A stretch of 64,000 bases of DNA, taken from the IMG/VR virus record IMGVR_UViG_3300032282_001105, positions 1 to 64,000 of that record. One strand, given 5' to 3'. Position 1 is the first letter of the stretch. The number at the start of each line of letters is the position of its first letter. A program made the translations under genes and the position numbers. This DNA is from a virus. Under the pieces are notes generated by a model. It ran no database searches. It saw only the letters and a program-made list of their open reading frames with translations, and was not told where the DNA came from. Positions 86 to 37,700 of this stretch are shown here, in pieces.

Positions 86-2860
86 TTAAACTTTTGAATA
101 CTGCAATAATTCACTTTGTATACTATTGCTATCAGACTGGGCGTCAATCAAGGTATCCATTTTAGCAACAAATTCTCTCATTAAGTCAACTAGTTCGCTA
201 TTATCAACTGGGGCGGCATTGCTACCAAACATATCCCCTGCAGGAGTATTAGCTAGCTTATCTAATATTGAATCTTTAGTTAGTCGTTTAATAAGTTCAT
301 TACCGTGTAACGTAGCTGAGTATCCAGATTCTGGCCCTTCTGCAATACCTTCTAGGCTAGCACTAACTTTGCCACTATCTCTTAATAAACTAACAACAGT
401 TGGTGCCCTATTACCTACTTGCCCGTACCATTTACTTTGTTCTAAGTTTTGTGCGGCACCTTTAGTGTCACCTTCTTCAAGTTGCTTCTTAAGCTTAGGC
501 CATTTACTAATCCAACTTGGGCCCATATTGAATGTCAAATCTGTTAATGCTCCTTGACCTCTACCATCTAGTTTACCAAATCCAGGAATATTCATAGCGG
601 CACTTCTATGGTGAGCATAGTCTTTTTCAAACATTGCCATCACTTCTTCATCACTAAACTCTCTGTTCATTTCAGGTGGTAATGATTTACCATCACCAAT
701 CAAGTGGCCTACACCAACAGTCCATAATCCTAAACTATCCTGGTAAGGTCTATTTCTCTTACCTTCGTGTTTAATAATCATTGCTTTGATTTCTTCGTCA
801 CTCATACCAGCACTACTAACTTTAACTTTTGGTGGGGGCATACCTTTCATATCGTCTGAACTAGCGCCGGTTGCTTTACTAGAAGCGTCTACTCCTCCAC
901 CATCTGTTCCACCACTAGTTAGTACTCCCATATTTTGATACAAACCCATACCTGCACCAACTAAGCCACCTACAACCGCTCCGGCTGCTGTTCCTAAACC
1001 AGGCACTACACTACCTACCATTGCTCCCATACCTGCATAACTTGCGGCTTGACTTGCAATATCTAATCCAGCACCGGTTTTTGCGTGACCTTCACTCTTA
1101 GCATAGTCAGCACCCATACCTAATGCGGCGCCACCTAATGCGGCTGCACCACCTTTTAATAATCCTCCGCCAATCCGTTTCATTGCGCCACCTTTACTAG
1201 GGGCACCTTTACCAGGACCAACATCTCCGGTTCCACTGACAGATTCTATAGCTTTTCCTACAGTTGCTTTTGCGGCCATTGCACCTAATGCAACTGCGGC
1301 TACCCCGGCTGCGGCAGTTAAGGCTGCGGCAGCGGCTGTAGTAGCATTGAATCCTTGCATCAATGGATTTACTGAAGCTACTAAATCATCTAAACCAATC
1401 TTAGCCTTACGCTCAAGTTCAGTTAGTTCATTACGTGCTATTTGTGCCGCATCTTGGGCCGCAACACCTTTATTTAAAGAATTTTCTTGTATCTTATTTC
1501 TTGATTCGGCTGCGGCTGCAACTTCACTCTCTACACCTTCACGTTTATTAATGTAGTCTAATGCTTTTTCATCTAAACCAGTTGCCTTTTTGAAGTCCTC
1601 ACTTAAAGCCAATGACGCTTGATTACCATCAGTCATTGTTTCTGCGGCTTTTTTGTAAGCATCATTAAATTGACCAGATTGATATGTGTTTTCTTTGGCT
1701 GCTTGAATCTGCTTCTCTATATCAACTCCAAGAACTGCAAACTGTGAACTTGCAGGAGTAATAGCTCCTGTTAAATATTGTAACTGAACTGCCGCTGTTT
1801 TAGTAGGATCACCTAACTTAGTAACGTCATTTATAAGTTTGTTAGCACCTTCTTTTTCAGCCTCAATGCGGGCCATTTCTTCTTTGTTACCAGACTCTTG
1901 TGCCGCTTTGAGTTGTTTAGCCCATTTGTTTTCTTGTAATTTCCATTCATAAGTAGCACGTGCTACTTCCATATCCTTCTTGGATTCTTCAATACTCTTA
2001 CCGGTTATAGAACTTAGTTCATATAAGTTTTTAGTATAATCTAATGAAGCTTTTTGTAATCCTGCACTAGTTTTTAGTTGACCGCTTAGTACACCACCGG
2101 AACGTTCCATCATTCCAATATAGTCAGCTTGTGCTTGTATACGTTCTTGGTCATTCAAACCTAAACGTTGAAACTCCATTCTAGTTGTTTTGGTGACAGC
2201 AATCATTTCACCAAATACTTTTACTCCATCAGCAGATGTAGCCCCCAAGCGTGTTAATCCACCGCTCATAGAACTCATTGGCTTTATCATCTTATCTAAT
2301 TGGTCTGATGCTAAGCCTGCATCTATACCCATTTTACGTATACCTTCAGCAGTAAATGAGTTCATTGCACCCATTTTACTAATTGCGTCAGTAGCTTTTA
2401 GTGTGTCATCTGCTTGCTTCAATGCCATCTCGGCAGCTTTAGTAACACCTTTTACTAGTGCGCCGGCTGCTAGCCCAAGTGGACCAAAGTTTTTGCCCCA
2501 AGCTAGTGCGGCACTGCCGGCACTACTCAATGCGTTATTGTATTTTGCAAATTCTCCGGTACCATTTAATAAGGCACTGGCAAAACTATCAAGTGCTTGA
2601 GTACTTTTACTCATAGCTTCATTCAAGTTAGCTTGCCTTCTTTGCATCTCAGTTTTAGCAAAAGCATCTGCTTGTTGACGTTCAGTACCTTCTTTAAGAG
2701 ATTTGTTATATTTGTCTAATCCGTCTTTGACTGTAGTGGTTCCAGCGGCTATTCCACCTACTTGACTTAAACCCTGCATAACGGTTGGCAAAATTCTAGC
2801 CATATCGTTCAATGACTCATTTATTTGATTAAGTGCATTTTGATCTAAATTTTCTGCCAT
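86..2860 (-). CDS. Tail tape-measure / baseplate-hub-like protein with C-terminal phage lysozyme (GH24-like) domain
   Basis: Long Ala/Gln/Lys helical region, hydrophobic and glycine-zipper segments (GMGAMVGSVVPGLGTAAGAVVGG), lysozyme motif IIKHEGKRNRPYQDSLGLWTVGVGHLI...LTFNMG...SKWYGQVGNR; lies divergent from a gp26-like gene. Confidence 0.8.
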   Translation of the reverse strand: MAENLDQNALNQINESLNDMARILPTVMQGLSQVGGIAAGTTTVKDGLDKYNKSLKEGTERQQADAFAKTEMQRRQANLNEAMSKSTQALDSFASALLNGTGEFAKYNNALSSAGSAALAWGKNFGPLGLAAGALVKGVTKAAEMALKQADDTLKATDAISKMGAMNSFTAEGIRKMGIDAGLASDQLDKMIKPMSSMSGGLTRLGATSADGVKVFGEMIAVTKTTRMEFQRLGLNDQERIQAQADYIGMMERSGGVLSGQLKTSAGLQKASLDYTKNLYELSSITGKSIEESKKDMEVARATYEWKLQENKWAKQLKAAQESGNKEEMARIEAEKEGANKLINDVTKLGDPTKTAAVQLQYLTGAITPASSQFAVLGVDIEKQIQAAKENTYQSGQFNDAYKKAAETMTDGNQASLALSEDFKKATGLDEKALDYINKREGVESEVAAAAESRNKIQENSLNKGVAAQDAAQIARNELTELERKAKIGLDDLVASVNPLMQGFNATTAAAAALTAAAGVAAVALGAMAAKATVGKAIESVSGTGDVGPGKGAPSKGGAMKRIGGGLLKGGAAALGGAALGMGADYAKSEGHAKTGAGLDIASQAASYAGMGAMVGSVVPGLGTAAGAVVGGLVGAGMGLYQNMGVLTSGGTDGGGVDASSKATGASSDDMKGMPPPKVKVSSAGMSDEEIKAMIIKHEGKRNRPYQDSLGLWTVGVGHLIGDGKSLPPEMNREFSDEEVMAMFEKDYAHHRSAAMNIPGFGKLDGRGQGALTDLTFNMGPSWISKWPKLKKQLEEGDTKGAAQNLEQSKWYGQVGNRAPTVVSLLRDSGKVSASLEGIAEGPESGYSATLHGNELIKRLTKDSILDKLANTPAGDMFGSNAAPVDNSELVDLMREFVAKMDTLIDAQSDSNSIQSELLQYSKV

Positions 2861-2930: not shown

Positions 2931-3761
2931 ATGACTATACAAAACAACCCACTAAAGCAATATTTCCGTAGACCTTCAATTTATTTGAAACTACCTAGCG
3001 GTGGTAAAATGTATGCACCTGGTGTAGTAAATATTCCAGAATCCGGTGAGCTTCCTGTATACCCGATGACAGCGATTGATGAAATTACTTCAAAGACTCC
3101 GGATGCGTTATATAACGGTACTGCAATGTCTGATATTATAAAAAGCTGTATACCTGATATCAAAGATCCGTGGGCCATTAATAGTGTTGATTTAGATGCA
3201 GTATTGATTGCAATACGTTCGGCTGCGGATGGTAACGATATGTCTATCACATCTGGATGCCCTAGCTGTAAAGAAATTGCAGAATATGCAGTAAATTTAG
3301 TGGGAATTTTAAGTCAATTGAGGGCAGCCGACTATGATAAAGAGTTGACTATAAATGACTTATCTATAAAGTTTAGACCATTAACTTATAAAGAAATAAA
3401 TGAAGCCGGTACTAGTCAAATGGAAGCCCAACGAATTTTTATAAGTTTAGAAAAAGAAGAAAATGAACAAGTTAGAATGGAAAAAACTCAACAGGCTTTA
3501 AAATATATCACTGAAATAACAATGAATATATTATCAAAAACTATTACACATATTAAAACTCCCTCAGCATTTGTAGAAGAAATTGAATATATTTTAGATT
3601 TCTTGCATAACTGTGATAAGGACACCTATATTGCTATTAGAGATTATAATACAAATTTAAAAGCACAGGCTGAAATTAAACCATTAAAAATTAAATGTAT
3701 TCATTGCCAACACGAATATGAACAGCAGTTTACATTGAATACATCCGATTTTTTCGGATGA
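2931..3761 (+). CDS. gp26: Baseplate hub subunit/chaperone, T4 gp26-like
   Basis: NPLKQYFRRP..YLKLPS.G, PMTAIDE, D..LIAIR, two CxxC pairs (CPSC, CIHC), C-terminal DFFG; RBS AGGA. Confidence 0.7.
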   Translation: MTIQNNPLKQYFRRPSIYLKLPSGGKMYAPGVVNIPESGELPVYPMTAIDEITSKTPDALYNGTAMSDIIKSCIPDIKDPWAINSVDLDAVLIAIRSAADGNDMSITSGCPSCKEIAEYAVNLVGILSQLRAADYDKELTINDLSIKFRPLTYKEINEAGTSQMEAQRIFISLEKEENEQVRMEKTQQALKYITEITMNILSKTITHIKTPSAFVEEIEYILDFLHNCDKDTYIAIRDYNTNLKAQAEIKPLKIKCIHCQHEYEQQFTLNTSDFFG

Positions 3762-3985
3762 AGCTTCTACACCTTGACCACGAGGGTGTAAAGAAGCTGA
3801 TAGATAATATGGAAGAAGAGTGTGCCGGTATTAAGAAAAATGCTCTTAGTATGAGTTGGTATATGAGAGGTGGTGTAACATATGAAGATGTGTTAAATAT
3901 GTCCTCTGAGGAAAGAGCAGAAATTAAGAAAATTATTGATAGCAATCTGGAAGTTACTAAGAAATCACAGATGCCATTCTTCTAA
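3758..3985 (+). CDS. Small baseplate hub assembly protein (gp51-like)
   Basis: ATGA overlap with the gp26-like gene; W.MRGG.TYEDVLNMS.EER motif; position matches the gp26-gp51 pair. Confidence 0.55.
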   Translation: MKLLHLDHEGVKKLIDNMEEECAGIKKNALSMSWYMRGGVTYEDVLNMSSEERAEIKKIIDSNLEVTKKSQMPFF

Positions 3986-4040
3986 TCAAACCCGTAACTG
4001 TTCATTTATCACATCGGGTTATTATATTGTTTCTTTGTAA

Positions 4041-4082
4041 AGATGAACTTCGTTCATCTAAGAACTCACTTCGTTCGTTCTT
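4041..4082. repeat. Two abutting hairpins sharing an AC-GAA-GT core (minus-strand sense)
   Basis: AGATGAAC-TTC-GTTCATCT (4041-4059) and AAGAAtype stem AAGAAC-tc-AC-TTC-GT-tc-GTTCTT (4060-4082), followed by an AT-rich tract. Confidence 0.85.
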
Positions 4083-4124
4083 ATTGTTTACGGTTATCTA
4101 TTGTTTTTTATTCTAATTTTAATA

Positions 4125-4492
4125 CGGACTATATTGCCGCTTTGAAGCCATGGTAGTGCTAATCAGCACTACCAATGGTAAAGGTTGTTTGCACGCCCGT
4201 CATCCAGTGTTATCTATTCCCCACTTAGTCAGCTATTTGATGCTACTAAATGCTACCGGTTGCTCTGTAAAGTATATGGGATTGTAGTTGAATTTACGCA
4301 CTTTATTGTGTTTCATTCAGCAACGCACATTCTATTGATTCAAGATAAAATATCAATAGACTTGTTGAAGGTTCGCTTTGTCGATTGCCTTCTCGGTATT
4401 CCGTGTATATCGCTATACACGCTTACTCCAGATCCGTCAGCACAGCACAATCTGTACAAACTCAAGGAGGTCTCCCAACGGAGACAACAAAT
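4125..4492 (-). ncRNA. Putative structured non-coding RNA, family not recognised
   Basis: Non-coding and visibly GC-richer than its flanks. Stems at 4470-4485, 4402-4421 (GCGA GNRA loop on minus), 4367-4392, 4331-4360, 4222-4252 (G-U pair only on minus) and 4151-4174 (10 bp). Boundaries are approximate. Confidence 0.6.
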
Positions 4493-4504
4493 TTTTACTA
4501 TAAA

Positions 4505-5071
4505 TTAGGTATTGATTGTGAGGATGTTGTTATTTGTAACAGTTTGATTTGACGTGGTGTCTATTGAGCCTGAATATGTTTTTAATAATTGACTGTTATG
4601 TATAAAGAAACTGTCAAATTCTGTTATTATCCAATCACCATTTTTGGGACTAGTATAATATAAGAAATTGTCAGTAACCCAAGTATGCTTGCTTTCTACG
4701 GCAATATATCGACCTTTACGATTGAACTTCATAAAAAGAATATTACAATCGTCAGGATCGGCTACATCCATGAGTTGTTCTAGCCAAGCATCTATTACTT
4801 TACATTCCCCTGAAAGTAATAAATGAAATGGAAAATCAGCATAAAACTTACATTCTACATTCATCTTAGTAAAAGTCTGTCCAGGAACAATGTCCCCTTT
4901 GAAACTTCTAATCTGACCTTCGTGTAGTATTTGGGTTCTTGACTGATTTTTGCCACCGATGTAAGCACCTGAACCGGGAGCACGAATGAATGATTCACCG
5001 TACTTCTCTGAAAGATATTTAGCAATTTCTCGCTCAAAACCGGAACCTTTTGCTTTTTGTGGACTTGGCAT
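4505..5071 (-). CDS. PD-(D/E)xK nuclease, Holliday-junction-resolvase-like (Hjc type)
   Basis: KAKGSGFERE, R.PGSGA, GDI...VECK catalytic pattern; lies downstream of gp46/gp47. Confidence 0.75.
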   Translation of the reverse strand: MPSPQKAKGSGFEREIAKYLSEKYGESFIRAPGSGAYIGGKNQSRTQILHEGQIRSFKGDIVPGQTFTKMNVECKFYADFPFHLLLSGECKVIDAWLEQLMDVADPDDCNILFMKFNRKGRYIAVESKHTWVTDNFLYYTSPKNGDWIITEFDSFFIHNSQLLKTYSGSIDTTSNQTVTNNNILTINT

Positions 5072-10981: not shown

Positions 10982-12610
10982 ATGTCACAATATACGAGTA
11001 CGCAATCCACAGCAGGTGGGTTAGTTATTAATGCAGTATTAAATTCTGTAAATAATACAATAACTTACACAGCATCCGCCCCTAACGGTGCGACTGCAAC
11101 CTATACTGCACCTGCGGCAGAGGCTGGAAATTCTGTTACAATTGTTAATGCTCTACGAACACCTTTACGAAATCAAAATGTACCGGGTACCGTTTACAAT
11201 GGAATAGGCACTGCATTAGAGAGTGTACAAGTATCAACTACCCAGCAAGCAACTCAGGCACAAGTTACTGCTGTTGCTACAGGAAATCCTCCACCCGCAG
11301 AATCAGCGCCCATTCCAGTAGCAACAGCAAATAATCCAAACACAACACCTACTCCGTCTATTCCACCAGTAGAAAACGCAACAGCACCATCTACTGGACA
11401 AAATGCCGACGCAGCCTTCCAAGAAGCTAACGCATCACCACAACAACTTATCGACCCTAATAATGATCCTAATACTAATATTGGTGTAGAGGTACAAAAT
11501 ACAGGATTTGAACCATTACAAGAACCTCCTATTACTAATGATGGAGATGAGTTTAGTGGGATAGATGAACAAGTACAAAGGCAAAAAGATTTAGAAGATG
11601 GGTCACTAGAATTTGCTGGTATAGATGACCAAATAGCCGCAAATGAAAACGCATTGCAAGAACCACCACAGTTGACGGATGAAGAAATAGCACAACAGAT
11701 ACAACAAGCAGGGCAGGGATCTGATACAGAAGAAAGTGTATTTGATCCTACCGGTAATGGTGGTGCACCTCAAGGTATATCAACTGCATTAAACAACACC
11801 CGTAGTACGGCAACAAAACAAGATAGTGCTAACTTTCAACAAAAGCCAGATTGGCGTGCAAGATTAAGTCTAGCACCAAACGCAAACTATTTGTACAAAG
11901 TACCAAAAGGACAAGCAGGTATATTAGCACCATTGCAAGCAACAGATGGAGTTATATTCCCGTATACACCTGGCATATCAGTAACATACAGTGCGGGTTA
12001 TGACCCAAGTGAATTAATACACAGTAACTACAAAGTTTATCAATATAAAGGTAGTAGTGTAGATACAGTTTCAATAACCGGTGATTTTACTGCCCAAGAT
12101 ACTAATGAAGCTAATTATATGTTAGCAGTAATACATTTCTTCCGTAGTGTCACAAAGATGTTTTATGGACAGGATCAGAACCCCAATAATGGTGTACCCC
12201 CACCGTTATGTTATTTAAGTGGGTTTGGAGCATATACTTTTGATGCTCATCCGTTAGTTGTAACTAACTTTACATATACTACACCGACTGATGTAGATTA
12301 TATACGTGCAGGTAGTCAGACTAATCAACCGGGTGTAAATGTAGCACAACAAAATAGTATAGTAAATAGCTTTGTACCAAGTGTACTACGAACTGCTATG
12401 AATGGCTTGGCTCCTAAATTACCAAACTTCTCAACACAGAACTCACTTATTAACTCTGATGCAACCTATGTACCTACAAAATTACAATTACAAATCACTT
12501 GTATACCTATCGTTACTAGAAACGATATCAGTAACAAGTTCAGTCTCAAAGAATATGCGACTGGTGCATTATTACGAGGAAGTAAACGATCAGGTGGAGG
12601 TATTTGGTAA
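10982..12610 (+). CDS. Baseplate/tail-tube-initiator-like structural protein with low-complexity N-terminal half
   Basis: C-terminal domain DWRARLSL...GVIFPYTP.I...HSNY...ITGDFTAQ...PPP.CYLSGFG resembles contractile-tail tube-fold proteins; lies immediately before a gp53-like gene. Confidence 0.55.
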   Translation: MSQYTSTQSTAGGLVINAVLNSVNNTITYTASAPNGATATYTAPAAEAGNSVTIVNALRTPLRNQNVPGTVYNGIGTALESVQVSTTQQATQAQVTAVATGNPPPAESAPIPVATANNPNTTPTPSIPPVENATAPSTGQNADAAFQEANASPQQLIDPNNDPNTNIGVEVQNTGFEPLQEPPITNDGDEFSGIDEQVQRQKDLEDGSLEFAGIDDQIAANENALQEPPQLTDEEIAQQIQQAGQGSDTEESVFDPTGNGGAPQGISTALNNTRSTATKQDSANFQQKPDWRARLSLAPNANYLYKVPKGQAGILAPLQATDGVIFPYTPGISVTYSAGYDPSELIHSNYKVYQYKGSSVDTVSITGDFTAQDTNEANYMLAVIHFFRSVTKMFYGQDQNPNNGVPPPLCYLSGFGAYTFDAHPLVVTNFTYTTPTDVDYIRAGSQTNQPGVNVAQQNSIVNSFVPSVLRTAMNGLAPKLPNFSTQNSLINSDATYVPTKLQLQITCIPIVTRNDISNKFSLKEYATGALLRGSKRSGGGIW

Positions 12611-22730: not shown

Positions 22731-25700
22731 ATGGCAGCACGAATTAGAACACTAAATTTTTTACCAGATATATTCCAAACACCTACTAATGCACAATTTT
22801 TAGGTGCAACACTGGATCAAATTGTTGACCAACCCAACACGATGCGAATCGAGGGTTACATTGGTAGTAAATTTGGTTATGGAATTAATGCCAAAGATAA
22901 TTATGTAATTGAACCTACAAAAGTACGCACAGACTATCAATTAGATCCGGGTGTAGTTTTTACAAAAACAAATACAAGTACTGCTAAAGATTTCATAAGC
23001 TATCCAGGTATCATTGACGCATTAAAATTAGAAGGTGCAATTACAGATAACAATGATAGATTGTTTAATAGTCAATTCTATTCTTGGGATAGTTTTACTA
23101 ACTTAGATAAGATTATTAACTTTAATCAATACTATTGGTTGCCAACAGGTGCACCGGCAGTTAACATATCAACTGACATTGTTTATACCGCAACAGATTA
23201 TACTGTTCAAAGTTTGCCTAATGGATATAAAATCTCTAGTGATGTTAATCCAGGTGGAACGACTAACCCAACATTAACATTGATTCGTGGCGGCACATAC
23301 ACGTTTACAGTAAATCAATCTAGTGAATTTTGGATTCAAGGTAAACCTGGCATTACTGGATATGATCCACAACAACCAAACATACAAACACGTGATGTAT
23401 TAGGTGTAGAAAATAACGGCACTTCTACTGGAGTAGTCGTATTCACTGTACCATATAAAGATGCACAAAATGAATATAATTTCCCGGGTAATAATTTAGT
23501 AGATGTTGTATCTACATTACCTTTCGACCAAATCAATGGTCAATTATTAAGTGATGTTGGCAATATAGATGGTGTGACAGGCCTTGAAGGGCTTACTGTT
23601 ATGTTCTATAACACTGGCAGCCCTTTTTTAGTTTCAGCAGGATCGTTTGTAGTAGGAACTACTTATACGATTACAGATTTAGGTGATACCACGCAACTTC
23701 AATGGAATACTATTGCCGGAACAAGTAGTGTTACATATGCAGTAGGTGATAGTTTTATTGCAGCCGCAGTTGGTACTGGTACAGGCACAGCAAAAGCATT
23801 AACTGGATATGTTTCTAAATTTTATGATACTACATTGTATGATGAGGATGGTGGAGTAAGTTATACTCCTCCGGGTACAACAGCAGATTTTAATAATTAT
23901 GAAGGTGGATACTACACAGATATCTATTCTACTTTCTATACTATAACGTATGAAGGCTCTGCTTCTGATCCAGTGTTACGTTTAGTACCATCAACTGCTA
24001 TTCCAACAAGTCAAAAAATCACAGTTACCTACGGTACACAATGGAAAGCAAGAAACTTCTATCGTACTACAGTTGGTACTATTAATCTTATTCCGTACCT
24101 AAGTGCTATACTTGATACATTATATTATCAGGATAGTGTTAGTGTAAATAAAGTAGGTATTATTAGATTAATTGAAAATAATTCTACTAATCAAATAGAT
24201 ATCAATGATATATTAGGTAGGGAACAATATACCAGTCCAAATGGTGTAGTATTTACTAATGGACTAAAAGTTTCTTTTTCTGGCGATATATTCCCTACAA
24301 GTTATAAAACAGGGGAATATTATGTAGAAGGTGTTGGTACTGCAATAGAATTAATTGATACTTCTACACTTATTGCTCCAGAACCTTTTACTGAAGGTTC
24401 GTATATTCCATACGATACATTGCCTTATGATGACGGTAATTACGACAGCACCTTGTATGTCCCTGTATATCAGGATTATATAACTATTGCAAGAAATAGT
24501 ATAGACAAAAATGCTTGGTCAAGAAGTAATCGTTGGTTTCACATTGATGTTATCAATGCCACTGCTACATATAACAATAATCCAGATATAGCAACTGTAT
24601 ATGCAACACAGTACAATAAAGCAAAACGCCCTATCATTGAGTTCTATCCTAACTTAAGATTATTTGATAACGGTATAATAGGTAAGGCACCTATTGATTT
24701 CTTTGATGATAGAACAACAGACGCATTTACATATGTAGCTGGTCAAGAAAACTATTGGCCAGATGTTGAAGTATTTACTGCTTATACTGCCGCAATTGCC
24801 GGAGTTACTGGAGATACAACAACTACTATAACTGTTTTAGAAAATGACGTTACCGGAACATTCCAAGTAGGTCAATTTATTAGTGATACAACTAATCAAT
24901 TACCAAGCAATACTCAAATCACTGATATAGCATCTGCTACAGTCGATGGAGTAACAACACTAACTCTTACAGTTGAATGGATTACACCTGCTAATGTAGG
25001 TACAGTTACAGATGCATCACTTGTTGCAGATGATGTATCAAACGACAACTATTCATTATATGATGGTGCAAGAATCGTATTCTCAGTTGATACTAATCCA
25101 GAAGTTAAAAACAAAATTTACGTTGTAAGATTATCTGACATTGCAGGTGATGGAACAAAAGTAATAACACTTACCGAAGCAGATGATGGATTGGTGTTAC
25201 CATTAGAATGTACATTTGCTTTTAAAGGCTTTAACAATCAAGGTAAAGATTTTTATTTTGATGGTGTTGAATGGTTCTTAGCACAACTAAAAACTACTGT
25301 AAATCAAGCACCGTACTTTGATATATTTGATAATGATGGTATTAGTTTTGGTAACACAGATGTTTATGTAGGTACTTCATTCAAAGGTAATAAATTATTC
25401 AGTTATGGAATTGGTAGTGGTATAAAAGATATTGTATTGGGTTTCCCACTACGTTATAGTTCTGTAAATAACGTAGGTGACATTAGTTTTGATGTCCCTT
25501 TAAATAGCGCAACCTTTAATTATGTTAACGGTACAACTCCTAAAACACAGCAAGTTAATACAGGTTATGTATATAATTACACGTCGGGTACAAATGTAGT
25601 TAGACAATTGGGATGGCAAACTGCTGTTGCAGAAAGTCGTCAATATCAAATATTTTCTTTTAACTATGTTGCATCTGAAGCGACAACAACCTATACTTGT

Positions 25701-28700
25701 GATATAGCTGCCGAAACAAACACAGTATGGCCTAATATTCAAGTTTATGTTAATAACGTTCTACAGGCAAAAGATACCTACACATATACAATTAATGCAA
25801 ACTCTACCGTTGTTAATTTTACAGTTCCTGATCCCTCAATTGATACAATTGTAGAGATAACGTTATTAAGTGACCAAGTAAGTAAAACTGCATACTATCA
25901 AGTACCTATTAATTTACAAAATAACCCATTTAATGCAGATGTTACAGTTGTAAATGTTGGTGATATTCGTGGTCAATATCAAAGTATTTTCTATAATAAT
26001 CCAAACACAACTGGAGTTGTATTTGGTGCAAACAACTATCGTGACTTGGGTAATCTTGTGCCGTGGGGCACTAAGATAATTCAAAATAGTGCGTCATTGG
26101 TATTACCAGGCTCATTGTTAAGATTACAAAATCATAACTTAATTAATTCAATACAATATAGTAGTCAGCAATATATAAATTTTAAATCATTGTTAGTATA
26201 TACTATAGATAAAACAGAATACAATGTTCGTCAATCTCCTGCAACTATATTAGATGATGCATTGGATCAAATCACATCAAATAAAACTAATACAGAACCT
26301 TTCTTCTGGAGTGATATGTTACCAAGTAAGGCGGCATATGTTACTAATACTTATACATTTGCTAACTCATTGGATGTAAGTATCTATCCTTTAACAAGAA
26401 TTTATAATTATAGTACTGCTAATTATTATGGCGTGTTGGTATATTTGACAACAACAGTAGGTAATATTACTACTACTGTACAGCTCATTATTAACCAAGA
26501 TTATACAATAAGTACAGATAGTCCTTCTCTTACTATTACTAAAGATTTAGCACCCGGCGATATTATAACCATTAGAGAATATAATCAAACATTCGGTAGT
26601 TATGTTCCAAACACTCCTACTAAACTAGGACTATATCCTTCATTCATACCTTCAGTAGTACTTGATTCTGATTATTCACAGCCTACATACTTTATTCAAG
26701 GACACGATGGATCTTACAATAAACTATACGGTGATTATATTGATGGTTATTTAATTGACTTTAGAGATCAGGCTTTATTAGAGTTTGAAAAACGAGTTTA
26801 TAATAATTTAAAACTATCAGATATTGTTCCTGTTACTGAGTATGATGTTATTCCGGGCTTCTTTAGAACGACCAATTATTCATATGATGAAATATTACAG
26901 ATATACAGTCAATATTTCTTAAATTGGGTTGGGCAGAATAGACTTGAATATAAGAAACAATTCTATCAACCTAATGATGAATTCAGTTATAACTATACTC
27001 AATCTGGCAATAAGATTAATGGTCAAGCTTTTGAACAAGGCTTCTGGAGAGGTATATACGAATATTTCTATGACACTAGCACACCAAATTTAACTCCTTG
27101 GGAAATGATTGGTTTTAGTAATGAACCTACTTGGTGGACAAGTCGTTATGGTGCATCCCCGTATACAAGTGACAACTTAGTATTATGGGGTGATATGGCA
27201 GCAGGTATTAACTGGAACAACGGTGATCCAATCGTATTACCACAGTTTATCAGAGAACAGTTGTTAGAAGTTATTCCTGTTGATAGTGCCGGTAACTTGT
27301 TATCACCGTTTGATGCGGTGATGGGTAACTACAATCAAAAAACATTCCGTAACAATTGGGTGGTTGGAGATGTAGGCCCAGTTGAGTTCAGTTATCGTAG
27401 AAGTAGTAGTTGGCCTTTCGATTTAATGAAGATTCTTGCCCTTACTAAACCTGCTCAATTCTTTAACTTAGGGTTTGATGTAGATAACTACAAATACAGT
27501 AGTGAGTTTAATCAATTTTTGGTTAACAATCGTAGTCACTTAGTGATTAGTGATGTTGCTATATATGGTAACGGAACAGCAAAAACAAGTTATGTTAACT
27601 GGATAGTTGATTATGAAAAACAAGCTGGTATTACTGCCACAGAAAATATCACTGAGCTATTCGATAACTTAGATGTACGATTAATTTATAGATTAGCTGG
27701 ATTCAGTGATAAGAGTTTGCTTGGCTTCTTTGTTGAAAAAGGTACTCCTAACAGTAGAAACGCTTCACTGTTAATACCTGACGAAAGTTATAGTGTAATC
27801 TTATATGATAATGTACCTATATCTACTATAATTTATAGTGGTGTGGTCGTACAAAGCACAAGTACCGGCTGGAAAGTATTTGGTAATTCACAAGATACTG
27901 CGTATTTCACAACAGTAACACCAAAAATTAACGGTAATTATAACAAAGTAACAGTGGGTAACCAGTCTGTACAAATTGCCAATGACTACACAGAAACAAA
28001 AATTAATATAGTACCGTATGGCACTGAGTTTGTTGATATACAATCATTGAGTCAGTTCATTGCAAGTTACGGACAATTCTTGTTAACACAGGGTGTATTG
28101 TTTGACCAAATTGAATCTGGTATAGATGTTAATTGGCGTCAGATGATTACAGAATTATTATATTGGATACAATCAGGTTGGGAAAATGGTAGCTTAATTA
28201 ACTTGAATCCGGCTGCAAATTTAATTACTATTAATAAAGAAAGTCACGTAGTTCAACCTTTGACATTACAAAAACAAAACTTCATATTGAATCAAAACTT
28301 CTATCCAATACAAAGTACCGACTTGTCTGTTAACCGTGATAGCACATTTTTCAGCGCAAGACCGTTAAATGAAGGTGACACTGTTGCATATGGTCAATTC
28401 AATATTAGCAATTTTGAACATGGTATTGTTTTTGATAATGTAACATTATTCAATGATGTGTTATATAACTTAACAACAGGTTTAAGACAGAATCGTATTC
28501 TAACAAGAGGTACTAAGTCCGCAGATTGGAATGGTACTATTGATGCACAAGGCTTTATTCTTAACCAAGACAACATTGAAGAATGGAGTCCAAATCAGAA
28601 ATATACAAGAGGCAGTATTGTTAAGTATAAAAACAAGTATTGGTTTGCATTAAAAGTATTAAATGCAAAAGATATATTTGAAGAACAATATTGGAAAGAA

Positions 28701-31700
28701 ACAGATTATAATGAAATTCAGAAGGGCTTGTTACCAAATAGTTCAACACGTTCATATGAATCTACGTTGTTTTATGATACAAACAAAGCTAACTTAGACC
28801 AAGATAGTGATTTACTAAGCTGGTCATTGATTGGCTATCGTCCACGTGATTATCTAGCTTTAGCGGATCTCACAGATATTACTCAAGTTAATGTTTATAA
28901 GAACCTTATCAAAGAAAAAGGTACAAGAGTTGCTACTGATACGTTTAGAGGATTAACGTTACCCCAAGGTGGTATCGATTATGATATCTATGAAAACTGG
29001 GCGATTAAGACTGGTGAGTTTGGCGGTGTATTAAACAATAACTTTGTTGACTTCCGATTAAATCAAAATGTATTAACAAGTAATCCTAGCATTGTAGGAT
29101 TAACTAATGGAACATTCACGACCGGAGTACAACAAGAAGTACCAACATATTCTATATTCAATTATGGAAGACCTGTCAATAGTCCTAATGTATTACCTAC
29201 ACTACCTTCTGATACTCCAAACAGATTATTACCAGATGCAGGATATGCAAACTTTAACGATATTAAAATATCATCATATTACTATAATGGATTGAATACT
29301 GCGGTTACTCCTCTGTCACAGTTATATGTAAATGAGTATGTATGGTTAGCTGATTACAATAGTACTTGGCAAGTATATACTCCTACAAGTGCTGGACAAG
29401 TTATTGGCGCAGTAAATAATTTAAACGGCACAGTAACTATTCAGTTTGCAACGCAACATAATTTAACCAAATATCAACCGTTTGCTATTGTTAATTTTAA
29501 TAGCAACATTAATGGATACCGTATTGTTGCAAGTGTAGTAGACGCTTTTAGAATAACAATAGCATTAAACATATCTCCATCTATTACTGGTATTACTGGT
29601 AACGGAGTAGCATTTAAATTCTCATCACAACGTGTTGCTACACCTAGCGATATTAACAATTTACCATTACTAGATAGCGAATTTGTAAAAAATAAAGTTT
29701 GGGTTGATGAAAATAATGATGGATCTTGGGCTGTATATAGTAAGAGTTTAAATTATGTATTCAATGATGAATTACTAAAAACAGGATCATCAACATACGG
29801 CAGTGCTGTAGCACAAACTTCTGCATTGGGATATTTAATTACTGATGCTACTGCAGGTAAAGCATATCGTTATAGTTATAATGTAGTTTTTGATACTTAT
29901 AGTATTGTTCAAACACTCGACCACGATGTATCTTTTGGTACTAGTATTACATATACCGATGATATATTTGTAATCAGTGAACCAACTAGCGGGTCACCTA
30001 AAGTTTATGTTTATCAATTAGAACAAACAACATTAGTTGACCAACTTAACTTGATTCAAACAATTACAGCAGAAGACGGTTCAACAAATTGGGGTAGTGC
30101 AATATCTGTATCCGGCGATAAGAATTGGTTATATATATCTGCTACTGATTTGAATAGAGTTTATGTTTATCGCAAATCTAACCCAAATACATATTCAGCT
30201 GGAACATTCACTGTAGGTAAATCGTACACCATTACCTCATTGGGTACTACTACACAAAATGAGTGGAATATTATTGCTGGAACTAATTTGAATCCAGAGC
30301 CGGTAGTGTATTCTGTTGGTAGCAGTTTTGTTTGTGCAGATCCCGGTACTGGATCCGGCACAGCAACGGATATTACATATGTTCAAGTAACTTACCTGTC
30401 AACAACACTCTCTCCGGGTGATAATTTTGGTTACGCACTTGCTACAAATTACTATGGTAACACCGTAGTTACAAGTGCACCAGAAAAAGATACAATTGTT
30501 GCTGATTTAGGTACTGCATACTCCTTTGAAAGAATAGTGCAAAATTTTGAGGCGTCTTATAATAGTTTACCATTTACGCCACAAACGTTTAGTTTGATAT
30601 TCACTCCGAATACAACGCCTGTCACGGTTACTGCTACTAATTCAGGTACAGACCGTTTTACTTGTGCTAGTAGTGCAAGTTTAGTAGTCGGAGATCCTAT
30701 TGTCTTTACGGGGACAGTATTTGGTGGAGTGTCATTGAATACTGTATATTATGTATTAGCTAAACCAACAGGTACTACATTCACTGTATCTACTGAACTC
30801 GGCGGTTCAATATTACAACTGACTACAGATAGTGGTTCTATGATTGCTGTTCAACAAACTGAACCAATATTTGTTAGCGTTAACGGAACATTGATTGATG
30901 ATAGCAATTACGGAGTAACAAACTCGTCTATCAATATCTACTCATCATTAACAGCAGGTGATATCATTACTGTCAGTGGTTCTGAATTTGTCTTAACACA
31001 GGAATTTGCATCAGTAGATTCTAACCCAGAAGTTGGTACAAACTTTGGTTATAGTTTAGATGTAGATAATTATGCGAATGAAATATTGATTGGTGCACCG
31101 TTTGAAATCAATAGTCAAAATGAAGAAGGTGCTGTTTATCGTTATACTAATAGCGGTGGCAGTTATGGTATAGTAACTGGAACTACTGAATGTAATGTTC
31201 TTACACCTGTTACTATACTAGTCAACGGTTACTCAGTATTAATTCCTGCAGGAAATGCTTCTACTGTCGCAAGTGCTATTGCTTCAGCCAAAATTACTAA
31301 TGTTACTGCATCCGCTTCTGCTAATAATATTTTAACTATTCAAGTTATAAGTGTTGACTTAGCATATATCAATGCTAAGTTAACCGTATCAGTTTTAGAT
31401 GCTACTGTACTAGATCAATTAGGTATCCAGTTATATACACAAACACAATTAATCAATGATCCACATAGTCAAGGTAGAACTCAGTTTGGTAGCACAATCA
31501 AGTTTAATGAAAGTGGATCGTTTGTAGTAAGTGCTCCGGCATCAGCAAGATATTCTGACACTACATTTGATGCAAGTGATGATGAAAATTATAACAATGA
31601 CACATTGTTTGATAATAATACAACACAGTGGATAGATTCATTTAACAATGCCGGTGCAGTATATATGTATGATTACTTGCCAGTATATAATGAATCTGTA

Positions 31701-34700
31701 ATTAATTCAGGTGCATACGTATATGCACAAAGCGTCAATGCATTAAATGAAAATTATGGTAGTCAACCATATTATGGCACTGCATTAGATTTTAACAATA
31801 ATTATGTAGTTATTGGAACACCTAACTTTAGACCAAGTTATAACAATGGTCAAGTAATTATATACAACAATGCATCTGGTGAAACAGATTGGTCTGTGTA
31901 TCGTAATTCTGCACCAATCGTTAATACTGATGCAATACAAAACGTTCAGTTGTATAGTGTAACTACGAACAATACATTAGATAATTTAGATTATATTGAT
32001 CCATTACAGGGTAAAATACTAGGTGCAGTTAGTGAAAATTTAGATATTACATCTAATGCCGATCCTGCTAATTACAACAGTCCTGATGCAACAAACAAAG
32101 GGTCTACTATTTGGGGAGCCGAAGAATTAGGAAAATTATGGTTTGATACCTCAACTACAAAATTTGTAAATTATCATCAGAGCGATGATGTTGTTTATAA
32201 TAGTGTATGGTGGGGTCGTGTTTTCCCCGGTAGTGATGTAAGAGTTTATAGCTGGATCACAAGTGATGTACTGCCTATATTATATCAAGGCCCTGGTACA
32301 CCTAGAAGCCTAGATAATTATGTTATTCAATATAGATTAAACAGTACTGGAACGATTGTACCTATATATTATTATTGGGTAAGAAATACGAATATTGTAT
32401 TCAATCAATTAGGAAAAACTTTATCAGATACTATTTGCGAATCGTACATTGCTACACCAATATCAACTGGCATATCATATATGGCGCCAATACAACCAAA
32501 TGTATTTGGTTTATATAATTGTGGTAGCAACATTAATAACACTGATACTGCATTACATATTGGTTTTGCAACAGGTACAAATGATGATGTTTCACATAGC
32601 GTTTACAGTTTAATTCGTTCTAATTATGCTGATGATTTCTTGCCAGGATTACCTGGCATAGGTGACACACTAGTTCCTGAATCCTTATATAACAGAATGT
32701 TAGAAAGTTTTAGTGGAGTAGATCAGACCGGTGCAGTTGTACCTGATCCATACTTACCAAAACCAGTACAGTCAGGTATATTAGTTCGACCTCGTCAAAG
32801 TTTCTTCTATAATAGATTTAAAGGTCTAGAAAATTATCTTACATATGCAAATGAAGTATTTGCATTGTATCCTTTAGCTGAAACAAGTAGTTTGAAATTC
32901 TTGTTTACTGAAGGTCAAATCAATAAATCGACTGATCCGGTATATAATACTGACCCGTTAACACCTTATTATAGCACTAGTCCCTGGACAGGCCCGATTG
33001 AATTGTTTTACAATACACAAGATTACTGGGAACTAGTTAACTGGTGGGCTCCTGGCTATGATAACAATACTAGATCCGCAATGTTAGTTGAATCTTATTA
33101 TGATTTAGCTCCTATCAATGCTCAGATAGGTTTGATTGTTACTGTTAATAAAAACGGTGAAGGTCTACAAGAAACTTATATATATGACGGTGCAGAATGG
33201 GTTCGTATTGGTTTACAAAGTGGCACCATACAATTTAAGAGTTCTTTATGGGATTATGCTGAAGCACGTTTGGGTTTTGGTGATAATTTCTTTGACACAA
33301 CACCGTTTGATACCTTCCCTAGTGAAGAAACACGTTATATCATTCGTGCATTGAACGAAGAATTACCTAGTAACTTATTATTATATAGAAATAAATTGTT
33401 AACATTGATGTTCCAATATATTGTAAGTGAAACAATTGAAAGTCAAAATTATCTACCTTGGTTGAACAAAACCTCATTCATTGATGTTGCACACACTATA
33501 CGTGAATTATTACCTCTAGAAGTATTCCAAAGTGATAATCAAGAATTCTTATCAGGCTATTTAAATGAAGCCAAGCCATTCCACGTTGTCATCAAAGATT
33601 TCTTATTCAAATATACAGGAACAGATGTATATGAAGGTGAAATAACTGATTTTGATTTACCTGCTCAATACAATACACAATACCAACAATACATTACTCC
33701 TGAACTAGTGTATGCTAATCCAAGTGGTATTAATCAATACTTGCCAAATGATCCTATCTGGCAAACTCAACCTTATATTAATTGGTTTAACAATCAAGGT
33801 TTAAGTATTACTGGTGTAAATAATTATCCTATTACAATATTAGCCTCATATATTTCAGAAAATAGTGGCTCGATAGTTGTAGACAACGTATATGGATTTC
33901 CAACAATAGGCACTATTTTAATAGGTGATGAAGAAATTTCTTATTCAAGTGTTGATAGAGCATATAGCACGTTAAATGGATTGACACGTGGTGTAAACGA
34001 TACACCTATATCAAATCATATTCCGGGTGAGCAAATTATCATTGATTTACCTCCTGTATTATTATTAAATGGCGGAAGAGGGTATGCAAATCCCCCTAAA
34101 GTTACCGCGTATATTGATACATCTATATACCCAGAACCAAGACGTGCGGCTATATTACAACCAGTAATGAGCTTAGATACAATTTTAAGAATTGATGTAG
34201 TAGATCCGGGTGATGGTTACCAAGTATTACCTGAAATAGTAATTGAACCAAGTGTAGTCATTACATTTGCTAGTACAGAAGTAGGAGTATTAACAAATAC
34301 AATTACGCTACAAACTCAGTTTGTTCAAACCGGTGACCTAGTTCGATATTATACTGGCATAGATACTACACCAATTGGTGGAGTAGATGATGGTCAATAT
34401 TATTATATTGCTGTATTAGAAACATCTCCGTTTTATGTTATTGCATTATATACTTCATATGCTGATGCATTGCAGGATCGTGACAGAGTGATATTTACAG
34501 ATGAAGGATCCGGAAATAATAATAACATTGCAGTAAGTGCAAGAGCAAGTTGTGTGTCAACTTCTGTCCCTATTAGAGAAAATAATATTACTCTACGATT
34601 TGATAGAACGACATATAACTCACCAATTACAGAATGGACACCAAATAATTTTTATGGTAGTTTCTATGCAGGTTTATTTAATAACAGCACTCAGGTTGCA

Positions 34701-37700
34701 AGTTCTAGTATTTTATTAGAAGCCACTCAGCCTCCTATCAATACTATTTTAGCTAGTGGTCAGGGTGCAACATTTGAAATACAAAGCGTAGTTAATGACC
34801 AAGTAGTAACATGGTCATCATTTATTCGTTCAGTAAGTGAAACAACAGCATCGGATGATTCTATCACTTTATCATATAGTAGTACAGAGCCAAATGCATC
34901 TGGATCAACTATTGGTTTTTATGTTGGAATGCCAGTTATGTTTGCCGGAGCAGTGGGTTTAAGCAACATAGAAAATGATATAACTTATTATGTTAAGTCT
35001 ATCGTTGACGAAGCTAATTTTACTATATCTGAAACAGTTGGTGGTCCAACATTTGCATTGAATGATGAAGTAATTAGCATTGCTGGTTTATCTTGTTATG
35101 CGGGTGAAGTAACAAATACTGCGATAGTAACAATAGCATATCCTGGAATATTGAATGTCACTACAACAGAACAAACAACTAACTTTATTACATCACCGTT
35201 ATTAGCTAGTGGTTCAGGTGGTACTGCTGGATTCTATGTTGGTTTACCTGTATATTTTGTAGGTGATGTATTTGGTGGAGTCATTGAGAATGATCCATAT
35301 TACATTATAACAATTATTGACGATGAGACATTTACTATATCAAAAGAGAATGATCCGTTAGTTTTAGACGTTACTGCTACATCATCTACTGGAAATGTAG
35401 TAACTGTATCTTCAACTCTACAACTAGCAGTTAATGATCCTATCATCTTCACTGGTGATACGTTTGGTAGTAACATTGTTGCAGGTACTGTATATTATGT
35501 TAGAAGTATAGTATCCGGTGGTATTACTATTGCTAGTGTATTAAACGGTGGTGCAGTTCCATTAACAACTGCTTCAGGTTCTTGCACATTAACTAGTCAA
35601 GCAACAGCATTGCAGTTAACAACTGTAAATAACGGCTCAATGACAATGAATGTTGGATTACCGGTAAGTCCAGGACAAATTAATGGACAACAGTTTACAT
35701 TCTATCAAACAGAATCATCTATTGCTACAGGTGTAACAGGTACTAATGGTAACTTAATTATACGAAATACTGTTGCTAGTACTGATAACGGCAATGCATT
35801 GTTCATATCATACTTGGATGGTGGTACAACAAATATGTACACTAACTTACCGTTCCAATTAGATGATACGATAGGTGGATTGTCTGCTAACACAACTTAC
35901 TATGTTTTATCATTAGAAAATATATCAGTTAATGTAACTAGTACAAGTTCTTCTGGTACTATAACTTGTGCTTCTACTATTGGTTTTTATGAAGATATGC
36001 CGGTATATTTTACCGGAGCAGTGTTTGGTGGAATAGACGATTTCAATATTTATTACATCAAAACAATCAATAGTCTAAACACGTTTACAATGTCTACTAC
36101 TATTGGTGGAAGCACATTTGTACCAACTACTGATAATGGTTTAATGACGTTAACCGTTGATGATCCTTATATTACTGTTAGTGCTACTCCAAGTGGTAGT
36201 GCAATAACTCTATCCGAAGAAATAAAAGAAGTAATACTAACTCAATACCCAACAGCAGTTCCATCATTCAATATAGGAACTTCATTGGGTGGTTATACAG
36301 TAGAGATTGTTGCAGACGGTGAGGGATATACATTTGACAATACGATTACTATTCCAGGAACAAGTTTAGGTGGAACGACCCCGACAAATGACCTCGTACT
36401 AACAGTTAATGGTATTTATGTTATTGTTGCAAATCCTGACTTTATATATTATCCTGATCCAGATTTCTTGTTACCATTAGTATCTGATGGAACTATTACA
36501 AGTGTGATTGGTTCAGGAACTCCTGTCAACATTGTAAATCAATATTACTTGAAAGTTATATCTGCAACACAATGTGAAGTTTATTCTGATCCATTAATGC
36601 AACTTCCAGTAAGTGGTATAGGATTCCCATATAACGCAGAAGATTATGCGTTATTACCTGAGCCGTTCTACTTTGACCAATCGATTGTTAAGTATAATAA
36701 TCAAGTATGGCAATGTGTTATTAGTAACAATGATAGTGAATTTATCTTAGGTAAATGGGAACTACTGGTCAGCGGTGATAGGAAACTTAATGAGTTAGAC
36801 CGTATTGTTGGTTATTATCAACCTACTGTAAATATGCCTGGGGTAGACTTAACTCAATTGGTCACTGGAATTACTTATCCTAATGGAACTTACAAAGATA
36901 ACGCTTTTGCTCCAGAGGATCAATATACATTAGATACTATTTTAGAAGATAAGCCGTTTGGTGAAATTGGTGAGACTATATACAATGTACAAGGTGATCC
37001 ATTCCAAGCAGGTTATGGACCAGAAGAATTAGTACCAGGAGTGGTTACTGATAACCTAGCAATGATTGTTACAACTAGACCGGGAACTAATTGGGATGCA
37101 GAAATATATCAAAATGTAGGTTTCAATGTAGTATCAACCGAAGTAACACCTACATCAGGTCAACAGGAATTCTCATTCAGTCTTATTGTAGAGAATCCGG
37201 CAAATATGGCATTATTTGATATTAATAATGCTACCAATTTAAGCACTAGAATATATGAGTATTCAGTTGATTGGGTTAATAAAGTTATAACTTTAGATAC
37301 TGCATTAGCATCAAATCATAATTTGCGTATAGATTTATATGAAGTTGGTAATGGAGATCAGTTAGTAAAATCTAATTCACAAGTCATACCGTTTATTGAC
37401 AATGAAACAACTGGTTTTGTTGAGATGCCATTAGGTTGTAATTATTCTGCTAACATATACAGTGGTTCTGGAATAATTAGACCAAATACAGATCCTAAAC
37501 AAGTTACTGCAACTGAAACTGATGCATTAGATAACGGTATCGTGTGTGATAGTGTGGACTATTTTGCACTTAATGCACCTATAACATTCCAAGGTGCTGT
37601 ATTTGGAAATATAGTTGCTGGAACTCAGTACTACATTAAAACAATTAGTACTATTACTAATAAAATAACTGTTTCAGAAACTATTGTTACTGGTATACCA

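Follow-up and report, generated by a model that had tools for sequence, protein, structure and literature searches.

Between the gene for a PD-(D/E)xK nuclease and a convergent gp51-like gene, an uncultured giant T4-like virus carries what would be the gene for a stand-alone non-coding RNA of ~355–365 nucleotides (nt), read from the minus strand. The window analysed here, meaning the whole stretch of 64,000 nt (positions 1 to 64,000 of IMG/VR record IMGVR_UViG_3300032282_001105), is a piece of a 72-kilobase (kb) fragment of an uncultured virus record that is ~17% complete by CheckV, and its genes are T4-like in kind. Compensatory base changes among relatives showed that selection acts on the pairing of the RNA, on the minus strand, clade-wide and at one copy per genome. 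The RNA occurs universally, as a single copy, across a large clade of uncultured giant T4-like phages, and by its sequence and predicted fold it is a so far uncatalogued family with no known relatives. We favour, with a probability of roughly 0.65, the explanation that it acts in trans as a folded RNA, be it by catalysis, as a scaffold that binds protein or as a particle that self-assembles.

Compensatory base changes identify a minus-strand RNA

A sequence-only reading of the window had proposed an unrecognised structured RNA of ~370 nt at 4125–4492, filling the only large non-coding gap from the nuclease stop to a pair of twin hairpins. Comparison with relatives bears this out. The interval from the 75-amino-acid (aa) gp51-like open reading frame (ORF) to the nuclease gene is 519 nt long (3986–4504) and contains no conserved ORF. 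It is the sole large gap of the window: the other gaps, counted between ORFs of at least 100 aa, measure at most 164 nt or are filled by a 301-aa ORF. Conservation runs from ~4133, the 3′ box of the RNA, to 4485, where its first helix lies, or to 4497 if an A-rich leader is included, close to the limits first proposed. The RNA is also GC-richer than its surroundings, as had been noted, with 41.4% GC at 4133–4497 versus 35.2% for the whole window.

A fold of the single sequence beat shuffles on both strands (z −3.4 and −3.3); taken alone it says little, and we decided the strand by covariation instead. RNAalifold applied to an alignment of 60 distinct copies (A1) gave 95 pairs, 51 of them with compensatory changes. 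Two pseudoknots were then added to the structure, PK1 after it had been spotted by eye in the alignment and PK2 after it had emerged from corrected mutual information. With the pseudoknots and the tail hairpins included, 99.0% of 6267 pair cells were standard and 60 of the 105 pairs had changed on both sides, compared with 11–15 in six slid controls. On four of five measures, none of 500 shuffles came up to the observed value. The core alone (5307 pair cells) was 98.9% standard when read as minus and 93.3% when read as plus, the difference being 308 G-U cells. This agrees with the strand that the sequence-only reading had preferred from a GNRA tetraloop and a G-U pair.

We rejected a protein-coding or decayed gene because of a broken ORF and the lengths of indels. 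The 107-aa plus-strand ORF at 4185–4508 was open in only one of 117 distinct copies, and the longest runs without a stop measured 62 and 64 codons in the median. Of 934 indel runs, just 80 were multiples of three, and one-base indels disrupt every reading frame within the RNA.

The RNA is conserved in a large clade of uncultured phages

A search of IMG/VR with the nuclease protein returned 193 related stretches, 80 of which were kept. The gap sequence was present in all 80 at 72–95% nt identity, full-length in 75 and cut by the end of the locus in five. Using a 20-base motif from helices P4–P5 we found at least 119 further stretches, and the RNA lay in the same neighbourhood in 118 of 119 such loci. 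The remaining one (L119) was a chance motif match within a gene of an unrelated GC-rich phage and was discarded. A 22-base core motif identified at least 120 metagenome stretches; all 80 loci fetched from these carried the RNA, with the nuclease gene upstream in every locus that reached far enough (56/56) and a gp51-like ORF downstream in 75/75. The phage clade is large, since a profile of six nucleases found 435 relatives. A profile-based locus search for relatives lacking the RNA gave the closest 80 loci again.

Across 89 loci, mean nt identity to the window was 79.8% for the RNA core, 77.6% for the nuclease coding sequence and 67.4% for the gp26-like coding sequence. The core was better conserved than the nuclease gene in 65 of these loci and better than the gp26-like gene in 88.

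We also built a covariance model (R1) from 85 positions of helices P4–P7. As a positive control, R1 gave one strong match in each of five huge-phage records (E 2e-26 to 1.6e-22), three of which are complete genomes of 352, 364 and 524 kb in which the RNA is single-copy. R1 did not match any of five cultured jumbo phages, SCTP-2, Phosso, Atu_ph07, PA5oct and RsoM2USA, all of which have a nuclease homologue; there, other genes follow the nuclease gene directly and no gap is present. The record of Phosso, a Sinorhizobium phage, has ~1 kb without an annotated gene between its RNase HI and resolvase genes (L244:1987–3000), and R1 matches nowhere in that record. A blastn search of the gap against 50,697 phage records gave no match at E ≤ 0.01.

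The core motif had no match in cellular genomes, sampled at one genome for each of ~185,000 prokaryote species. Of the 242 loci collected, the same motif matched 183; the 59 misses comprised 42 cellular loci, L119 and 16 phage loci. We do not regard those 42 cellular loci (L201–L242), which had been matched by the P4–P5 motif, as copies of the RNA: they lie in DNA of 50–69% GC with no phage genes, and similarity does not extend past 27–30 nt. Most of them are on the antisense strand of one conserved coding stretch, which in the one case examined is an AcrB-family transporter gene.

Predicted fold of the RNA

All elements of the RNA are on the minus strand; its positions are numbered as 4501 minus the window coordinate. 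The whole conserved RNA spans 4133–4497 (positions 4–368) and its structured core 4133–4488 (positions 13–368). The consensus fold comprises ten helices and a tight four-way junction; it also has two pseudoknots, both covarying, and probably a base triple.

The RNA opens directly past the nuclease stop with the A-rich leader UAAAAAUUU (4489–4497), in which A10, A12, A13 and T14 of A1 are invariant; in many relatives the UAA of the leader is the nuclease stop codon itself (upstream alignment of 53 distinct copies). The leader is followed by hairpin P1, GUCUCC-GUUG-GGAGAC (4470–4485, positions 16–21/26–31), where five of six pairs have changed on both sides and one pair is G-U in 20 of 60 copies. 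The box CCUCCUUGA (4462–4470), which resembles an anti-Shine-Dalgarno sequence and is invariant in 60/60 copies, would be the 5′ strand of P2. Its CUCC and GA are predicted to pair with GGAG and UC of the equally invariant 3′ strand UCUGGAG (4426–4432), an invariance that precludes covariation. P2 encloses a peripheral hairpin, P2a (4433–4461, A1 columns 45–72), of variable length and sequence, which is swapped for shorter unrelated hairpins in many relatives. Hairpin P3, CGTGTATA-GCGA-TATACACG (4402–4421, positions 80–87/92–99), has changed on both sides at all eight pairs, and its GNRA loop (4410–4413) is GCGA, GUGA, GCAA or GUAA in most copies.

The four-way junction is formed by P4–P7 with linkers of only 1, 1, 2 and 0 nt. 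It is closed by P4, in which UACCG (4394–4398) pairs with CGGUA (4254–4258; positions 103–107/243–247). The first pair of P4 is UA in 50, AU in nine and CG in one of the 60 copies, and UA in 79, CG in 23 and AU in 15 of 117; the remaining four pairs are invariant. P5 is a hairpin with an internal loop, GAAGGCAAUCG...CGAACCUUC (4367–4392, positions 109–119/126–134). Two of its five outer pairs covary (AU:40, GC:20) and its three inner pairs are invariant. Hairpin P6 (4327–4365, positions 136–148/163–174) has changed on both sides at ten of 11 pairs. P7 joins GUUGCU (4319–4324) to AGCAAC (4259–4264; positions 177–182/237–242), with three of six pairs changed on both sides, and carries the second variable peripheral hairpin, P7a (4289–4318, A1 columns 192–225), which shows internal covariation. 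A joining strand, ACUACA..UCCC..ACUUUACAG (4265–4288), with invariant ACTACA and TACAG, leads from P7a to AGCAACCGGUA (4254–4264), in which the 3′ strands of P7 and P4 follow each other with no linker between them.

Beyond the junction lies hairpin P8, CAUUUAGUAGC...GCUGACUAAGUG (4222–4252, positions 249–259/268–279), with eight of 11 pairs changed on both sides and many G-U pairs. The two stems that the sequence-only reading had singled out are thus both real and covarying, the one with the GCGA loop being P3 and the other, CATTTAGT/ACTAAGTG, part of P8. The strand that follows P8 makes both pseudoknots. PK1 pairs GGGA (4218–4221, positions 280–283) with UCCC of the joining strand (4278–4281, positions 220–223), and all four pairs have changed on both sides. 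PK2 pairs AGAUAA (4210–4215, positions 286–291) with the P6 loop UUAUCU (4343–4348, positions 153–158), and five of six pairs have done so. Position 230 (window 4271) always matches position 103 in base, each being complementary to 247: 103-247/230 is U-A/U in 50, A-U/A in nine and C-G/C in one of 60 copies. The pattern is that of a probable major-groove base triple.

The 3′ part of the core begins with a conserved, mostly unpaired stretch (4179–4209) that contains the box GAUGACGG(G/U)CG. Position 305 (window 4196) in this stretch is coupled to position 361 (window 4140): among 117 copies the two are G/G in 81, U/U in 36 and mixed in none, with 36, 24 and no mixed cases among the 60 copies of A1. 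The switch occurs among close relatives and does not depend on the P9 loop between the two positions, and we found no third column correlated with them inside A1. P9 is a hairpin of 12 base pairs (4148–4178, positions 323–336/341–353) with a nearly invariant stem, GGUAGUGC/GCACUACC; six of its pairs never vary and two have changed on both sides. The core ends with the 3′ box CUUCAAAGCGGCAAU (4133–4147), in which CTTC.AA.CGGCA is invariant. A short helix, P0, may join GGC of the 3′ box to GUU at 4486–4488, a weak proposal of three base pairs whose changes are one-sided only.

The core is separated by an A/U-rich variable spacer (4083–4132, A1 columns 400–478, poorly conserved) from the twin hairpins (4041–4082). 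These have C(GAA)G loops, the first with a tandem G-A, and six of eight and five of eight of their pairs have changed on both sides. In L023, L041, L026 and L080 the first hairpin has a GC-GAUA-GC top instead. The twin hairpins may form the tail of the RNA at its 3′ end or serve as its terminator, or they may be a single-strand signal at the DNA level.

Comparison with known RNA families

The RNA matched no catalogued family. At gathering score we obtained no match to any of the 4227 models of Rfam 15, which include GOLLD, ROOL, OLE, HEARO, raiA, RNase P, transfer-messenger RNA (tmRNA) and group I and II introns, either in the whole window or in ten divergent relatives. At E ≤ 10, the region 3900–4650 gave three chance rows (two microRNAs and one small nucleolar RNA), all outside the RNA or at its edge. 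ARAGORN found no transfer RNA (tRNA) or tmRNA in the 64-kb window. These searches sustain the earlier view of a novel large phage RNA that lacks tRNA, tmRNA or RNase P signatures.

In the complete 364-kb relative (G003), ARAGORN did find 47 tRNA genes, one of them with a CUA anticodon, together with a tmRNA. The RNA of that genome lies at 293.8 kb, more than 50 kb from the tRNA cluster, and since the tRNA genes and a separate tmRNA lie far off we consider it to be neither a tmRNA nor linked to tRNAs. Forty-five of the tRNA genes are at ~225.7–240.9 kb, and the tmRNA (tag ANDSVFALAA) and the CUA tRNA, which would read the amber stop codon, are near the right end.

Introns and cis-acting leaders could be set aside from position. 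The RNA sits between the stop of a complete nuclease ORF and a convergent gene, so that no gene is interrupted, as the sequence-only reading had also held, and a group I or II intron does not apply. A riboswitch or other cis leader was rejected as well: on its own strand the RNA is followed by nothing but hairpins and the 3′ end of the convergent gene.

GOLLD (RF01998) and ROOL (RF03087) are among the closest likenesses in kind. They are large and ornate, with many pseudoknots and many conserved unpaired bases, are often phage-borne and have no known role, all of which they share with this RNA. They measure roughly 580–800 nt and are frequently placed beside tRNA genes in phages or prophages, whereas this RNA is ~355 nt long, is not beside tRNA genes and matches neither in sequence or structure. 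We saw no conserved self-complementary loop in it. GOLLD and ROOL self-assemble, as outlined in a study by cryo-electron microscopy (cryo-EM; 10.1101/2024.12.08.627333).

The layout also recalls OMEGA/TnpB-type systems, where a nuclease gene is followed at once by a structured RNA on the same strand and then by a variable stretch. The nuclease here is instead small, PD-(D/E)xK and resolvase-like rather than RuvC-type, the stretch that varies consists of low-complexity A/U sequence, and the RNA persists where the nuclease gene has been lost. We found no mobile-element ends.

No published description of this RNA turned up in the literature searched. The 10,006 viral candidate RNAs of one such survey are, as summarised there, 30–151 nt long only (Fremin et al, 2023; PMC10690425), and single hairpins of this RNA may be listed in its supplementary tables.

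A trans-acting folded RNA as the favoured explanation

The RNA is most simply explained as co-transcribed with the nuclease gene, because the first helix begins 9–16 nt past the nuclease stop and no promoter scored. The RNA would most likely arise as the tail of the nuclease transcript and end at or before the twin hairpins. It would then fold into a compact knotted core made up of a 5′ domain (P1–P3), the junction P4–P7 and hairpin P8, with the 3′ strand tying the P6 loop and the P7 joining strand together through the two pseudoknots. We suggest that this core works in trans through its invariant unpaired boxes, as a catalyst or as a scaffold for a protein or for itself. We suggest so because its unpaired boxes are invariant, its peripheral hairpins vary freely, no gene lies downstream and it persists where the nuclease is lost. 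We do not think that it regulates its neighbours.

As to what such an RNA would do, a ribozyme and a protein-binding scaffold are two tentative possibilities of equal standing; self-assembly in the manner of GOLLD and ROOL is more doubtful. The predicted fold is ribozyme-grade. It might, though we hold this no more firmly than the ribozyme itself, represent a new class of ribozyme or RNA machine that only giant T4-like phages possess, with the knotted core and the triple as its active site. Such a ribozyme would, for example, carry out RNA or DNA cleavage, ligation or processing in replication and recombination, and the unpaired boxes would be catalytic or substrate-binding.

Several observations weigh against this picture or qualify it. 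Nothing in our results suggests a substrate, ligand or protein partner, and neither a promoter nor a canonical terminator scored near the RNA. The fifth measure of the shuffling test, the number of further pair types, was unexceptional and was reached by 90 of 500 shuffles. Because the pairs of P2, four of the five pairs of P4, inner P5 and most of P9 never vary, these helices stand on prediction alone. The fixed position behind the nuclease gene in the 56 testable metagenome loci would suit a functional link as well. Finally, the records in which the nuclease is truncated (see below) are only 3–27% complete, so that an intact copy of its gene elsewhere in those genomes is possible.

The sequence-only reading had offered two other roles, and its proposal of an RNA partner for the adjacent nuclease is now weakened. 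The RNA would be a cofactor, guide scaffold or decoy made on the same transcript; in one form of the idea, its four-way junction mimics a Holliday junction. The start of the RNA on the same strand 0–16 nt after the nuclease stop, the constant presence of the nuclease gene upstream, the tightness of the P4–P7 junction and the order of a conserved scaffold followed by a variable stretch are all what one would expect of a partner. The adjacency itself is weakly informative, however, because the entire neighbourhood keeps a fixed gene order in the clade, and the variable stretch at 4083–4132, being low-complexity A/U, does not look guide-like. When we searched five phage records with the reverse complements of two boxes, the 3′ box and the GAUGACGGGC box, we recovered the RNA gene itself and scattered one-mismatch matches only, and no conserved base-pairing targets. 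In six loci (L097, L160, L165, L173, L178 and L190, from at least five records), moreover, a gene for a SegE-type GIY-YIG homing endonuclease (L097:1586–2477; Pfam E 1.4e-33) replaces residues 1–68 of the nuclease. The remnant ORF in this lineage is 139 aa long and has also lost E73 and K75, yet the RNA is full-length and its helices are paired. Since the truncated lineage keeps the RNA and the cultured jumbo phages have the nuclease alone, the two are probably not an obligate pair, and we regard a partnership as unlikely.

An origin pre-primer or R-loop RNA, the other proposed role, is no easier to credit. The RNA would hybridise to the A/T-rich spacer, and the displaced sense strand would fold into the GAA-loop hairpins. 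As in the ColE1 RNA II and T4 oriF R-loop transcripts, a structured transcript ends in A/T-rich sequence beside strand-specific hairpins: here the variable spacer and two C(GAA)G hairpins follow the RNA on its own strand. T4 oriF is located within uvsY, in the vicinity of genes 25, 26 and 51, and the RNA adjoins homologues of gp26 and gp51. Cumulative GC skew of the complete 364-kb relative lent the idea no support, with a maximum near 196 kb, a minimum near 330 kb and the RNA at neither; the nearest major strand switch, at 299.2 kb, is 5.4 kb from the RNA. This is a weak test, because in T4-like phages the skew mostly mirrors transcription. A primer would do with a far simpler fold than this, a doubly knotted core with many invariant unpaired bases being unnecessary for that task, and the GAUA (GNRA) loop of the first hairpin in some relatives fits RNA as well as DNA. 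A role in translation seems quite improbable. The box CCUCCUUGA would mimic the 3′ end of 16S rRNA and titrate Shine-Dalgarno sequences or a ribosome-binding factor, in keeping with its complete invariance, with the AGGA/GGAG-type sites that precede several window genes and with the heavy investment of the 364-kb relative in translation (47 tRNA genes and a tmRNA). The consensus fold nevertheless pairs this box with an equally invariant GGAG, and the box accounts for only nine of ~355 nt. It is very improbable that the RNA is a cis-acting 3′ untranslated element that stabilises or terminates the transcript of the nuclease operon or insulates the convergent operons. It does lie where a transcription unit ends opposite a convergent one, with hairpins behind it, but its complexity and its conservation, at least as high as that of the coding flanks, exceed what a terminator or stabiliser needs, and it is retained where the upstream gene has been destroyed. 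Least credible of all is that the models overlooked a far-diverged RNase P RNA, tmRNA, group I intron, GOLLD or ROOL. The type A RNase P RNA of bacteria is of similar length, with two pseudoknots and a four-way junction bearing two hairpins and a longer arm, a loose resemblance to the RNA described here. The order of the pseudoknot strands differs, RNase P gave no Rfam match even at E ≤ 10, and the universal RNase P box GAGGAAAGUCC is absent from the sequence. The silence of the models extended to ten divergent relatives, and ARAGORN, which passed over this RNA, detected a separate tmRNA in the 364-kb genome; an intron would have to interrupt a gene.

RNAs as large and intricate as the one we favour to act in trans are rare. 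To our knowledge, nearly all such RNAs with a known job are ribozymes or the cores of ribonucleoprotein machines. The few orphans among them (OLE, GOLLD, ROOL and raiA) have each opened a line of research. Should the RNA prove to be catalytic, or to form the core of a machine specific to phages, a very short list would gain a new entry; should it form cages, that behaviour would be known from a much smaller RNA as well. Since it is conserved and single-copy and the alignment resolves its pseudoknots and likely triple, it is ready for synthesis, probing, cryo-EM and assays without a host.

Neighbouring genes and other features of the window

The RNA gene is flanked by genes on both strands. To its left are a lysozyme-bearing hub protein of 924 aa (86–2860, minus strand), a gp26-type baseplate protein (2931–3761, plus strand) and the 75-aa gp51-like ORF (3758–3985, plus strand), which is convergent to the nuclease gene. 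A TTTTTTC run (3749–3761) stands right ahead of the stop of the gp26-like ORF, and the 75-aa ORF overlaps it in the −1 frame. Immediately past the stop of the 75-aa ORF, AACCCG...CGGGTT could form a hairpin (3989–4020); its loop GATAAATGAACAGTTA is conserved in relatives on the minus strand, and no clear covariation was seen.

The nuclease to the right of the RNA gene is 188 aa long (4505–5071, minus strand) and belongs to Pfam PDDEXK_15 (E 1.3e-24); it also matches PHROG 244, which is labelled 'RusA-like Holliday junction resolvase' (E 2e-20). Further to the right on the minus strand lie genes for a radical SAM protein, a short-chain dehydrogenase and a Rad50/gp46-like protein. Elsewhere in the window, one plus-strand ORF spans 5717 codons (22731–39884).

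A late-promoter-like motif, AGATAAATA, was considered for the RNA and rejected, as it does not fit the UAAAAAU leader. Motifs like it recur ahead of the genes at 10982, 19333, 22731, 40702 and 43266, where they sit 10–25 nt before the ribosome-binding region, and they resemble the T4 late promoter consensus TATAAATA.

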